Shown here in pieces: positions 7,931-10,741 of a stretch of 64,000 nt of DNA (positions are counted from its first letter, which is position 1; each line of letters begins with the position of its first letter). This DNA is from Nitrosopumilaceae archaeon. Its GTDB lineage: Archaea > Thermoproteota > Nitrososphaeria > Nitrososphaerales > Nitrosopumilaceae. The DNA lies in contig CBDBCR010000003.1 in the NCBI GenBank assembly GCA_965203465.1, positions 928,263 through 992,262 on the forward strand, read 5' to 3'. Made by a program: the position numbers and the translations under genes. Below the pieces are notes generated by a model. The model searched no databases. It was not told the DNA's origin and was given only the letters and a program-made list of their open reading frames with translations.

Positions 7931-8098
7931 GTGTCGAAGTGGAAGAGCGGCGAGACGGACTTCACGGTGAGCGTAAGCAGGGACAATAGAGACTCTTATG
8001 TGTGCCGCCTGCCCAAACCGCTCGTGAAAAAGCTGGGCTTGGACGGCAGGATACGCTTCCGCGTGTTCAAGAGCCGCGTGGAGGTGAGCAAGCCTTGA
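7931..8098 (+). CDS. AbrB-like regulator (55 aa, not in the ORF track)
   Basis: MSKWKSGETDFTVSVSRDNRDSYVCRLPKPLVKKLGLDGRIRFRVFKSRVEVSKP; homologous to the IS passenger; TTGA overlap with the next gene. Confidence 0.75.
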   Translation: MSKWKSGETDFTVSVSRDNRDSYVCRLPKPLVKKLGLDGRIRFRVFKSRVEVSKP

Positions 8099-8661
8099 CC
8101 GGCCGTGCGACCGGTGGAAAATACAAGACGGTCGTCATCGACCCTCCTTGGAGAATCACCGCCACAGGCCCCAACTCGAAACCGTGTCGTGGGGTGCTCA
8201 AGCGCCGTTTGGATTACAGAACCATGACCGACCGAGAGATCGCCGACTTTCCAATAGACGATTTTGCCGCATCCTCGTGTAACCTTTTTGTCTGGTCTAT
8301 CCAGAGCCGCTTGCCGTTCACGATGGATCTTATACGCAAGTGGGGATTCAACTACTACTGCACATTCACATGGGTGAAAAATACAGGCATTACGATGCAG
8401 GGCGTCTTTCGCAACAGTGAATTCGTAGTATTCGGATATCGCGGACCTTTCAATATACCGTTCACCGGAAGGGCGGTACCAGCCGCATTCAAGGCCCGTA
8501 CTGGAATCCACTCCCAGAAACCAAGCGAATTTTACGAACTGGTGCGAACCAAGACCAAGCCTCCTAGAATAGATGTGTTTGCACGCCAAAGACATCCCGG
8601 TTTCGATGTGTGGGGAGACGAGGCTGTCGAGAGACCCCTCATCGAAGAGTGCCTATTCTAG
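8095..8661 (+). CDS. MT-A70 family DNA methyltransferase
   Basis: YKTVVIDPPW, YRTM, LFVW, FTWVK, HSQKP, IDVFAR..GFDVWGDE; the last five codons come from the IS110 end. Confidence 0.9.
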   Translation: MTGRATGGKYKTVVIDPPWRITATGPNSKPCRGVLKRRLDYRTMTDREIADFPIDDFAASSCNLFVWSIQSRLPFTMDLIRKWGFNYYCTFTWVKNTGITMQGVFRNSEFVVFGYRGPFNIPFTGRAVPAAFKARTGIHSQKPSEFYELVRTKTKPPRIDVFARQRHPGFDVWGDEAVERPLIEECLF

Positions 8662-8722
8662 CGGGCGTTGAAAATTTCGCCTCCCCCTCCACGCATCAGA
8701 CAGGCGGGGGCAAAATCTTCCA

Positions 8723-8924
8723 TGACCGGCAGACCCTGTATCAAATCTTATCTGGGAGGGGAGCATGGCTCTCCGAGATGGGCCCGAGAGTTGAACTATT
8801 CTTACCCCGCATGAGGGTGACCGGCAGACCCTGTATCAAATCTTATCTGGGAGGGGAGCATGGCTCTCCGAGATGGGCCCGAGAGTTGAACTATTCTTAC
8901 CCCGCATGAGGGTGACCGGCAGAC
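8723..8924 (+). repeat. Exact 95-bp tandem duplication (2 copies + 12 bp) in the IS110 non-coding left end; candidate bridge RNA region
   Basis: TGACCGGCAGAC recurs at 8723, 8818 and 8913 with identical sequence between. Confidence 0.9.
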
Positions 8925-9033
8925 TAACTCACAACAATAGGCGGACGGGGTACTACCCCACAGAGGGTGAATGGGAGCTTTCCGCTCAATCGGGCAAATC
9001 CACAAATCCAATGGCTTCGAAGGAGGTGACACA

Positions 9034-10107
9034 TTGATCAACATTGGGATAGACGTGCACAAAAAGATGTGCGTGGCGACAATAAAAGGAAACGGCAAGG
9101 ATATAATAGAACAGACCGAATTCAAGAACAGCAAAAAAGACATAGAGGCGTTCGCGGCACACGTAAAGAAGACGCACGGCAAAAACGCCAGGGCGGTCTG
9201 CGAGGCGACCGGCAATTACTGGATGATACTGCACGACACGCTGGAGGACTGCGGCATCGACACGATCCTAGCTCACCCGGCCAAGACCAAGGCCATAGCC
9301 CAGGCAAAACTAAAGGACGACAAGGTGGACTCGGAGGTGCTCGCGGACTTGCTACTCATGGACATGGTTTACGAGTCGTTCGTGCCTGACGAGCGCTACA
9401 GGAACCTGCGCAACCTGGCCAGAACCCGGCTCGACAGGGTCCGCACGGCGACGGAGCAGAAGAACAAGATAACTGCGCTTCTGGCCAAATACGAGCACAA
9501 GCTTCCCACAAAGACGAAATTCTCAAAGACCAACTTGAAGTGGATGCGAACCGTAAGCGTCTCGCCGGTGGACAGGCTGTCGCTGGACTCGTACCTCGAC
9601 ACGCTGCAGCTGATGCAGAAACAGACGGAAACGCTGGAGCGCGAGATAGCTTCCGAATGCATGGACGACGATAGGGCAAAGCTCGTCATGACGGTCACCG
9701 GAATAGGATACGTTACCGCGCTGACCATAATCGCAGAGATAGTAGACGTAAAGAGATTCAGGACGGCCGAAAAACTCGTCTCGTACGCGGGCCTTTCTCC
9801 GTCCCACCGGAACAGCGGCGAGACCAAGCGCGGCGGCGGCATAACCAAAAAGGGGTCCGTCTGGTTAAGGAACGCCATGGTGGAGGCGGCCAACGTCGCG
9901 GCGCGCTACGACGCTCGAATGTCTTCGACCTACGAGCGGCTGTCGAAAAGGATAGGCAAAAAGAAAGCGAGGGTGGCCATCGCGCGCCGCCTGACGGAGG
10001 TAGTCTGGCACATACTGACCGACATGGCCGAATACCGGACGCAGGACAAGGATCTAGTGCAGCGAAAGTATAAAGCGGCGGCGGCCAAAGCCCGCCCGCC
10101 TGACTGA
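9034..10107 (+). CDS. IS110-family DEDD recombinase/transposase
   Basis: IGIDVHK, CEATG, KDDKVD, GIG, SYAGLSP..NSG; SD AGGAGGTG before TTG 9034. Confidence 0.95.
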   Translation: MINIGIDVHKKMCVATIKGNGKDIIEQTEFKNSKKDIEAFAAHVKKTHGKNARAVCEATGNYWMILHDTLEDCGIDTILAHPAKTKAIAQAKLKDDKVDSEVLADLLLMDMVYESFVPDERYRNLRNLARTRLDRVRTATEQKNKITALLAKYEHKLPTKTKFSKTNLKWMRTVSVSPVDRLSLDSYLDTLQLMQKQTETLEREIASECMDDDRAKLVMTVTGIGYVTALTIIAEIVDVKRFRTAEKLVSYAGLSPSHRNSGETKRGGGITKKGSVWLRNAMVEAANVAARYDARMSSTYERLSKRIGKKKARVAIARRLTEVVWHILTDMAEYRTQDKDLVQRKYKAAAAKARPPD

Positions 10108-10180
10108 GCACACACTCGTTTGCAGTGGCCCGTCAATCCGGGAAGATTTGATATGGGAGAATAGGCAGCTAATCTAAATA

Positions 10181-10741
10181 GTGGCATCGTCAGGATCCCA
10201 CATGAGCCGTCGCGAGAAAGCACCGGTGCAAGATCAGGGGCGCGAAGAAAAGATGATCCGCATGCTCGGCCTTAGAGGGGTTGTCGGACGCCTTGGCCAC
10301 GACGCGGAGGACGATGATGGCCATACATTCGAACTAAAGTCAACAACGAAGAACAGTTTCGGAACCGGCAGAGATGTCTCTATCAACATGATCGGTAGGT
10401 GGAGGACGCGCCACTGGATATTCGCTGTTGGCACCAACTACAGGGATGGTTTTGAGATAGATGCCATGTACCTCTGCACCCCGACCATGATGAAGGAGCA
10501 GTTTGATCTATTTGAAGCGCGGTTTGGGCCCGATCTGACTCTACGCGACACGGTGATCGGATACATCAAAAAGCTCCTGAAAAAGAGTCAAATTGAGCGG
10601 CTCACATACCTCATAGATCGCGGGATGACGTATAACAACCCACACATCAGCCTCAAATACGTCCGAGAACATGGAATAGAACTAGATTTGGCAGATGCCG
10701 CCCAAAGCCTAAAGCGGGCGATGAATCAGCATGCCAACTAA
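10181..10741 (+). CDS. PvuII-like type II restriction endonuclease
   Basis: QD..GL...GR.GHDA.D..G..ELKS, WIFA, NNPHI..KYV.EHG match R.PvuII motifs (GREGNDAVD..ELKS, WIFA, NNPKIPVKYVMEHG) as recalled. Confidence 0.75.
   Translation: MASSGSHMSRREKAPVQDQGREEKMIRMLGLRGVVGRLGHDAEDDDGHTFELKSTTKNSFGTGRDVSINMIGRWRTRHWIFAVGTNYRDGFEIDAMYLCTPTMMKEQFDLFEARFGPDLTLRDTVIGYIKKLLKKSQIERLTYLIDRGMTYNNPHISLKYVREHGIELDLADAAQSLKRAMNQHAN

Follow-up and report, generated by a model that had tools for sequence, protein, structure and literature searches.

Introduction

In IS621 and the IS110 group, an RNA gene is located in a long left end, upstream of a DEDD/serine recombinase (PMC11208160, PMC11208158). The accessible parts of these two reports, to which all statements on IS621 made here are limited, describe an RNA with two stem/internal-loop/hairpin modules, the target module first and the donor module second (PMC11208160, PMC11208158). 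A given loop strand pairs with a single strand of a single half-site, the core dinucleotide included, and two extra bases past the 3'-side guide, the handshake guide, match the partner DNA (PMC11208160, PMC11208158). All of these features have counterparts in an IS110-family insertion sequence (IS) at positions 8733 to 10159 of the DNA studied here, a stretch of 64,000 nt from a Nitrosopumilaceae archaeon that is referred to as the window and whose coordinates are used throughout; the features of the window reported below are on the + strand. Judged by sequence comparison, the left end of this IS very probably encodes a bridge RNA with two stem/internal-loop/hairpin modules, one for the target and one for the donor, an assignment that we regard as genuine and well supported. 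We infer that the RNA would be made and used as in IS621. The left end also contains an exact tandem duplication, which is best read as a copy-specific by-product, presumably neutral, and not as an evolved extra loop.

Boundaries and Insertion Site of the Element

The ends of the IS were assigned by comparison of four copies, an empty site in sample X6, and the ends of relatives. The four copies are those of the window's own genome, G000 (2.26 Mb in 4 contigs), in which a search with positions 8641-10175 yielded three copies besides that of the window. One of the three is intact (L002), and two (L007+L003 and L005+L004) are each split by an unrelated insertion of ~1.1 kb. All three contain a single 95-nt unit, start CCGGCAG/ACCCTGTATC (a slash marks a junction) following unrelated flanks, and finish ..GATATGGGAG. 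CCGGCAG precedes all four G000 copies, and the right junction reads GGGAG/A(A/C)TAGG in two of the three others. The window element starts with ACCCTG, finishes with GGGAG, and is 1427 bp long, or 1332 bp minus the duplication. The triplet AGA is common to both junctions, which makes the boundary ambiguous by 3 nt; because the right ends of relatives finish ..GGGAG ahead of unrelated flanks, the core was set as AG and the IS as 8733-10159.

A perfect 11-bp subterminal inverted repeat is present as TATCAAATCTT at 8739-8749 and again at 8834-8844, and as AAGATTTGATA at 10143-10153. The right end (10143-10159) consists of this last copy followed by TGGGAG, with the core AG at 10158-10159. Beyond the inverted repeats, the element extends by 6 nt on the left (ACCCTG) and by 6 nt on the right (TGGGAG; 4 nt excluding the core). 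The left non-coding end (8733-9033) measures 301 nt, or 206 nt minus the duplication, and the right non-coding end, from the stop at 10107 to 10159, measures 52 nt.

The IS is inserted without target duplication at GACCGGC-AG/AATAGG, inside the right terminal inverted repeat of a hairpin repeat. The left and main part of this palindromic repeat of ~90 nt, which is not part of the IS, occupies 8651-8732, as evident from genome matches and an alignment of 12 copies. In the genome search, 11 other places in G000 matched window positions 8651-8733 alone. The aligned copies are bounded by the terminal inverted repeats CCTATTCTGGCGG and CCGGCAGAATAGG, and an intact copy folds as a single long hairpin (-38 kcal/mol, z -4.8), a stability reached by none of 200 shuffles. 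At the insertion site, the right terminal inverted repeat provides GACCGGC, the left target, and the core AG (8731-8732); what remains of it, AATAGG at 10160-10165, is the right target, as supported by the repeat alignment and the X6 empty site. There, the contig reads ..CCGGCAGA and then directly ATAGGCAGCTAATCTAAATAG, i.e. the repeat (up to 8733) runs straight into ATAGGCAGCTAATCTAAATAGTGGCATCGT (window position 10161 onward). The X6 sample has the IS in yet another repeat copy, and L002, oriented correspondingly, occupies the left inverted repeat of a different copy of the repeat. G000 contains 4 exact occurrences of the 14-nt target, and 9 when up to one mismatch is allowed. A derivation of the hairpin repeat from the IS as a miniature element was considered and rejected, as there is no resemblance between its terminal inverted repeats and the ends of the IS.

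These boundaries differ from those of an earlier interpretation made from the DNA letters alone (the sequence-only reading). It had placed the element ends at 8641 and 10174, which the three other copies, the relatives, and the X6 empty site contradict. The target that it had proposed, CCCCTC-ATC-TAAATAG, conflicts with the ends of the other copies and with the same empty site, which also ruled out the ATC direct repeat as a target duplication. Its donor junction, GGCAGCTA-ATC-GAAGAG, cannot be reconciled with copies that begin CCGGCAG/ACCCTG and finish GGGAG. The non-coding IS end of ~390 nt that it had drawn at 8641-9033 holds for 8733-9033; positions 8641-8661 belong to an MT-A70 open reading frame (ORF), and positions 8651-8732 are palindromic repeat. 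Its view that the element combines a long left end with IS1111-style subterminal inverted repeats was borne out by the 11-bp repeat.

Structure of the Bridge RNA

The left ends of 26 elements were aligned: the window IS in its single-unit form (L002), 6 from Nitrosopumilus metagenome-assembled genomes (MAGs), 9 from genomes of the family, 8 from Bathyarchaeia, and 2 from Methanophagales/Methanosarcinales. They were picked among 52 listed transposase starts. Near-identical duplicates, other left-end types (e.g. L075-L088), contig-cut or truncated ends (L040, L047, and L048), the fused-loop L028, the degenerate L006, and the flank-discordant L024 and L049 were left out. RNAalifold predicted both modules from this alignment, each with outer stem, internal loop, and inner hairpin, and compensatory changes were seen in 14 of the 19 pairs. 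The four helices comprise 18 pairs, for which 98.3% of the 468 cells were paired; column shuffles gave 76.5%, and none of 500 reached the observed value. The covariation score over these pairs and elements was 0.678 versus 0.269 after shuffling, and 13 of the 18 pairs changed on both sides. Sliding the partner by 1-3 columns lowered pairing to 32-49%. Compensatory swaps between clades were plain, e.g. GAGTT/AACTC versus GGCCC/GGGCC.

In the window, the complete target-binding loop (module 1) was assigned to 8883-8930 on the basis of RNAalifold, pair counts, guide tests, and a model match. Its outer stem is formed by 8883-8888 and 8925-8930, and its inner hairpin spans 8899-8913. RNAalifold, pair counts, and guide tests likewise placed the donor-binding loop (module 2) at 8941-8985, with the outer stem 8941-8945/8981-8985 and the inner hairpin 8955-8968. 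A 5' stem-loop at 8845-8874, in the transposase-proximal unit, was present in both single-sequence folds and has its other copy at 8750-8779; its sequence is not conserved across relatives.

A covariance model of both modules was built from the aligned elements (R1; 106 positions and 19 pairs), and its helices covary. L070, L071, L074, and L050 were absent from the seed, and the model still recovers them. It found 40 modules in 75 loci. The match at 8879-8987 reached 87.4 bits, as in the other G000 copies. The covariation and the guide/flank matches described below uphold the proposal of the sequence-only reading that a bridge RNA would be encoded upstream of the recombinase; the GAGTT..ACCC..GGGT..AACTC motif that it had described is identified here as the target-binding loop.

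Guides and Their Matches

As judged from the sequences compared, each of the four loop strands has its own match among the left flank, the right flank, the right end, and the left end of the element, and covaries with it. The 3' strand of module 1, GACCGGCAGAC (8914-8924), reads as left flank and core (GACCGGCAG) with AC, the initial dinucleotide of the IS, appended. The reverse complement of the 5' strand of module 1, AACTATTCTT (8889-8898), contains AGAATAG, i.e. the core plus the right flank. In module 2, the 3' strand GAATGGGAGCTT (8969-8980) contains ATGGGAG, the right end, and the first five bases of the 5' strand CGGGGTACT (8946-8954), CGGGG at 8946-8950, complement IS positions 2-6 with one G-T pair. 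In both modules, the 5' loop is a complement of the top strand, and the 3' loop repeats the top-strand sequence of the left half. These matches are to the target and donor as corrected above.

The left-target guide was examined in the 38 of the 40 model matches that had a full upstream window, a set less biased than the table of 26 elements. In 20 of 38 cases, the IS boundary, 46-54 nt upstream, contained an exact copy of the last 9 nt of the module-1 3' strand; in 29 of 38, at least 8 of the 9 matched. In a non-cognate control of 1344 pairs, the corresponding values were 1.0% and 4.6%. The fit to the own flank was 7/9 in L068, L044, L054, L027, and L076. The other guides were scored in the 26-element table. 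The right-target guide matched at a mean of 4.55 of 6 positions versus 2.1 for non-cognate pairs, with at least 5 matches in 11 of 22 elements versus 2.7%. For the right-donor guide, which corresponds to the left end of the IS, the mean was 3.77 of 5 versus 2.14. The two bases past the core equaled the IS start at both positions in 22 of the 26 elements and covaried as AC, AT, and AA. The right-end guide fitted 21 of the 21 right ends found; as the search for these ends had used the 7-mer of the element itself, the information lies in their position alone, just beyond the subterminal repeat.

Several observations speak against this interpretation of the left end. Single-sequence folds of the duplicated and single left ends were no better than those of shuffled sequences (z -0.63 and -0.31), and minimum free energy folds of left ends did not reproduce the loops supported by covariation. 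An Rfam search of 8400-10400 with E values up to 10 gave no matching family; the sole match was at chance level and inside the transposase ORF (18.2 bits versus a gathering threshold of 45). The shuffle controls overstate significance because the aligned relatives are akin to one another. The guide fitted its own flank at just 6 of 9 positions in L024, L049, and L038 and at 5 of 9 in L040, the left end of which is truncated. In addition, the L004/L005 copy ends GGGAG/ATCAGC, which is a poor fit to the right-target guide.

Two of the discordant elements, L024 and L049, belong to the same Nitrosopumilus MAG. The guide of L024 fits the flank of L049, and the guide of L049 fits the flank of L024 (TTACACAG versus TTGATAG). 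This suggests that the guide region may have been exchanged or converted between the two copies after insertion.

The 95-bp Duplication

Positions 8723-8817 and 8818-8912 form an exact tandem duplication of 95 nt with 100% identity, as the sequence-only reading had noticed; Tandem Repeats Finder (TRF) agrees with it and reported a period of 95, 2.1 copies, 100% matches, and no indels. Unit 1 (8723-8817) comprises 10 nt of flank and IS positions 1-85. Unit 2 (8818-8912) is identical to it; unit 1 is closed by the guide copy that makes up the first 12 nt of unit 2, the remainder of which is part of the intact bridge RNA gene. A third copy of the 12-mer TGACCGGCAGAC follows at 8913-8924 in the intact target-binding loop, of which it provides the left-target guide GACCGGCAG and the AC after it. 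The layout is therefore a flank 12-mer resembling the guide, 83 nt, a guide 12-mer, 83 nt, a further guide 12-mer, and the closing strand. The duplication junction falls inside the left-target guide and coincides with the 12-nt identity between the insertion-site flank and the guide.

Each unit contains the left subterminal repeat, the 5' hairpin and, from module 1, the outer 5' strand, the 5' loop, and the inner hairpin. The hairpin ATCTGGGAGG..CTCCGAGAT is found at 8750-8779 and 8845-8874, and the GAGTTG/ACCCC..GGGT motif at 8788-8818 and 8883-8913; the closing TAACTC occurs once only, at 8925-8930. The hairpin, the motif, and the single closing strand following the second unit are as first described. 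The upstream unit had also been interpreted as an extra loop, and this part of the description was not sustained. By the covariance model, what lies at 8788-8829 is an orphan half of a target-binding loop, with neither a closing strand nor a donor loop. It is composed of the outer 5' strand (8788-8793), the right-target guide loop (8794-8803), the inner hairpin (8804-8818), and the left-target guide (8819-8829). This truncated half-module scored 17.1 bits (E 0.0012) in a forced alignment, compared with 87.4 bits for the complete module. From 8828 onward the element is identical to a normal copy.

The duplication is present in one of the four G000 copies; the model finds four full modules in G000, one per IS copy. 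No other left-end duplication in the family was detected by TRF across the loci fetched to that point. A 21-mer at the guide gave three matches in metagenome contigs, all of them in unrelated GC-rich coding DNA.

A tandem array was observed in a more distant element of the same archaeal family. In L091 (2634-3155, strand -, genome G089), the IS110-family transposase of which is 28% identical to that of the window, a perfect array of 90 nt x 5.8 is located upstream of the transposase gene and downstream of a left end of the CCATATGTGG type. Tandem amplification upstream of an IS110-family transposase gene is seen here a second time and on a larger scale.

Origin of the Duplication

Because the left-target guide must equal the left flank, every inserted copy has a direct repeat 95 nt apart. 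The flank/guide repeat is 12 nt long here compared with 9 nt in the other three copies, because TGA of the palindromic repeat also matches the loop. Insertion would thus have created the direct repeat TGACCGGCAGAC between the left flank and the left-target guide, and a single unequal exchange at these 12 nt, through replication slippage or unequal sister exchange, would then have given the observed product. The outcome would be the orphan half loop (8788-8829), a nested second left end (8828), and an unchanged bridge RNA gene (8879-8987). From the sequence, a recent unequal exchange at the flank/guide repeat, with host slippage or unequal sister exchange as the favored one-step route, is the explanation that we prefer, at about even chances of being correct.

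The element's own recombinase may instead have made the duplication, using the guide-encoding DNA GACCGGCAG/ACTAAC as a near-cognate or half-match target, a possible if somewhat doubtful origin. Either a circle would have inserted at the guide DNA, resulting in left part, whole IS, and remainder, followed by loss of one 1.2-kb direct repeat, or the left junction and the guide DNA would have been exchanged directly on sister chromatids. The main facts that count against host slippage are those that make such an event conceivable. Of the 14 nt of the target, 12 are matched by the guide-encoding DNA, including the entire left half, and the insertion at L002 used CCGGCAG/ACTAGG, which has 1 difference from the internal site in the first five right-flank bases. 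Half-match recombination by IS621 is described in the accessible part of one preprint (bioRxiv 10.64898/2026.08.31.748434); that of another reports tandem non-coding units as frequent neighbors of IS110 transposases (n = 468), with guide half-matches, specifically donor half-matches, at the unit boundaries (bioRxiv 10.64898/2026.08.14.744561). The boundaries described there are left-donor-only, however, whereas they are left-target/right-donor here (bioRxiv 10.64898/2026.08.14.744561). The insertion route also requires two steps, no tandem IS with a partial left end, the expected intermediate, was seen in G000, and the event occurred once among the four G000 copies and in none of the other loci. 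Slippage at the 12-nt repeat and the recombinase routes yield an identical product and are indistinguishable by sequence.

Evidence from reads bears on whether two units are really present. It consists of the depths of Logan contigs from public runs and is indirect. In X1, depths were 39.7 for the unit contig (8821-8924), 28.5 for the contig that follows (8895-9224), and 10.9 for the unique flank, an excess that fits about one extra unit copy. The bin 8772-8802 had a depth of 1.24, in X1 alone, which fits a junction-specific piece starting at 8800 at single-copy depth. X3 has the IS at the identical site (contig 8562-8755) with an unbroken contig 8821-9267 and zero depth in 8772-8802, and X4 shows no break either. 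The weight of these depths is lessened by the fact that X1 is possibly the sample behind the assembly and that the contigs of X3 and X4 cannot prove the duplication absent. An assembly artefact, with one unit in reality, is nevertheless unlikely. Units of 100% identity in an element of four copies do invite mis-joins, no junction-spanning contig was among those listed, and X3 and X4 gave no sign of the duplication. Against this stand the X1 depths and the piece starting at 8800, the position of the duplication within a 992-kb contig with unique flank on the left, and a junction exactly at the 12-nt direct repeat, as expected of a biological exchange. Still less credible is the idea that the added unit was selected as a second, functional target-binding module of the bridge RNA. 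Both target guides and the inner hairpin are intact upstream, and the GAGTTG strand could compete for the single closing TAACTC in a long transcript. But the unit lacks a closing strand of its own, as reflected in 17.1 versus 87.4 bits; it occurs in one of four copies and in none of the other fetched loci, was not seen at the same insertion in X3, and exhibits zero divergence from its neighbor and no sign of maintenance.

With both the bridge RNA gene and the transposase gene intact, this copy is expected to have remained active. GACCGGCAG precedes each of its two left ends, at 8733 and at 8828, so that circles of either 1427 or 1332 bp could be formed. A transcript starting upstream would carry the orphan half loop, the GAGTTG strand of which could then compete for the single closing strand.

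Transposase and Neighboring Genes

The gene at 9034-10107 encodes an IS110-family RNA-guided transposase of 357 amino acids with a TTG start, as indicated by Pfam, NCBIfam, and PDB matches; a Shine-Dalgarno sequence, GGAGGTGA, is located at 9022-9029. The family assignment of the recombinase, already made in the sequence-only reading, was confirmed by NF033542 ("IS110 family RNA-guided transposase"; 249 bits versus a cutoff of 140) and by the domains PF01548 (DEDD_Tnp_IS110; E 7e-26) and PF02371 (Transposase_20; E 1e-25). The only PDB relatives were IS621 (phmmer E 6.6e-17, 8wt6_A) and ISCro4 (E 5.8e-13). In the phmmer alignment with IS621, the IGID, EATG, D..VD, and (N/E)SG serine positions line up, which we take to be the catalytic acidic residues and serine. 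The catalytic serine of IS621 is given as S241 in the accessible part of the structural report (PMC11208158). In a tblastn search against plasmids, the best bacterial identity to the transposase was 38%, and the names were generic.

The IS and the hairpin repeat separate an MT-A70 DNA methyltransferase gene (8002-8661; Pfam PF05063, E 2.9e-18), the last codons of which enter the hairpin repeat, from a PvuII-like restriction endonuclease gene (10181-10741; Pfam PF09225, E 4.7e-9). The two genes are likely a type II restriction-modification pair. On the X6 empty-site contig, only the hairpin repeat lies between them. The IS insertion may be polar on the endonuclease gene.

Copies and Relatives

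At C3:728917-730065 and C1:501207-502317 of G000, the two interrupted copies harbor two different interrupters of ~1.1 kb, both with terminal inverted repeats and inserted at TA/TATA. G000 also contains a relative of 73% identity (L006, C1:168973-170009, strand -), which is 58% identical at the protein level and has an intact transposase ORF. Its left end retains the 5' hairpin, and the family model detected no two-loop module in it at E <= 0.001.

A scan of genome contigs gave 45 loci, all in archaeal MAGs except for one weak bacterial match. The archaeal hosts are Nitrosopumilus and other Nitrososphaeria, Bathyarchaeia, and Methanophagales/Methanosarcinales. Within the taxonomic family of the window, 29 of the 151 genomes searched, G000 included, had a match at E <= 1e-30. 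The core is AG at both junctions in relatives and TG in 2 of the 26 aligned elements (Methanophagales). Subterminal inverted repeats measure 9-10 bp in the Nitrosopumilus relatives.

Some relatives have unusual ends. The left end of L028 (1300-1500, a Bathyarchaeia MAG) lacks everything between the inner hairpins of the target and donor loops, and one loop now contains both the right-target guide and the left-donor guide, an arrangement suggestive of a deletion between two similar hairpins. In L045 (2600-2700), a second, solo right-end fragment (..GATTTCGTATGGGAG) follows ~60 nt past the right end. In L020, the right end is followed, after 3077, by a long array of a 13-nt repeat (GAAATACTGTTAT). 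By eye, a palindrome centered on TTATA(T/A), e.g. CCATCGTTATATCGATGG, was noticed 15-25 nt inside the left ends of L067-L071. One possibility is an archaeal TATA box from which the RNA would start just 5' of the target loop; another is that the palindrome is the loop of the 5' hairpin.

Discussion

The locus provides a natural archaeal bridge RNA from Nitrososphaeria, with relatives in Bathyarchaeia and Methanophagales, that can be parsed in full, with the four guides, the core, the target, and the empty site assigned. It reveals no new kind of RNA and no new mechanism; the archaeal bridge RNA itself is an addition to a known kind. What it exposes is a structural liability. The guide copies the target, and every insertion consequently leaves a direct repeat of flank and guide; through this repeat, the 5' part of the RNA gene can be duplicated or lost, and alternative left ends can arise. 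The case aids the reading of the tandem non-coding repeats recently reported beside IS110 transposases.

A more speculative proposal, to which we give rather little credence, goes further: the left-target guide DNA might be an intrinsic self-target, used by the own recombinase in the 95-nt duplication and acting as a built-in hotspot for nested left ends and tandem units, and the archaeal clade might stand between the IS110 and IS1111 layouts as a simple "ends-swapped" intermediate. Were the hotspot real, it is via their guide DNA that bridge-RNA elements would acquire nested left ends and tandem non-coding units.

Compared with the tandem IS110 units, the window element is alike in that a non-coding module is duplicated beside the transposase gene with boundaries recognized by a guide (bioRxiv 10.64898/2026.08.14.744561). 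It differs in having 2 units and in the left-target/right-donor boundary, which arises because the flank and the left-target guide are identical, instead of the left-donor-only boundaries in the part of the preprint concerned (bioRxiv 10.64898/2026.08.14.744561). Like IS621, it causes no target duplication and has its target in a genomic palindromic repeat (PMC11208160, PMC11208158). The order of the guides is the reverse of that in IS621: here, the right half (top strand) is paired by the 5' strand and the left half (bottom strand) by the 3' strand (PMC11208160). The subterminal inverted repeat is 11 bp long instead of 2-3 bp (PMC11208160), and like the short repeat of the IS110 group it begins TAT/ATA (PMC11208160). 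The core is AG here, and TG in the Methanophagales relatives, versus CT in IS621 (PMC11208160, PMC11208158). Finally, the hosts are archaeal, and the transposase is only distantly similar to that of IS621 (E 6.6e-17).

Other traits recall the IS1111 elements with a seekRNA, as far as the accessible part of their description (PMC11187229) allows comparison. ISEc11, ISPa11, and ISKpn4 have near-perfect subterminal inverted repeats of 11-13 bp, and in the seekRNA, as here, the top-strand complement is located 5' of the bottom-strand complement (PMC11187229). ISPa11 shares the preference for palindromes, its targets being REP palindromes (PMC11187229). In IS1111 the non-coding region is downstream of the transposase gene, whereas it is upstream here and the right end measures 52 nt (PMC11187229). 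The terminal extensions, 6 nt on the left and 6 nt on the right including the core, differ from the 7/3 or 6/3 of IS1111 (PMC11187229). ISMtsp17, an IS1111 relative compared by description only, also has its non-coding region upstream (PMC11187229). The archaeal clade may already be present in the covariation data of PMC11208160 or in the phylogeny of PMC11187229. The mixed layout bears on the kinship of the IS110 and IS1111 groups: judged from guide order, repeats, and layout, the element appears to be one with an IS1111-like RNA in an IS110-like position.

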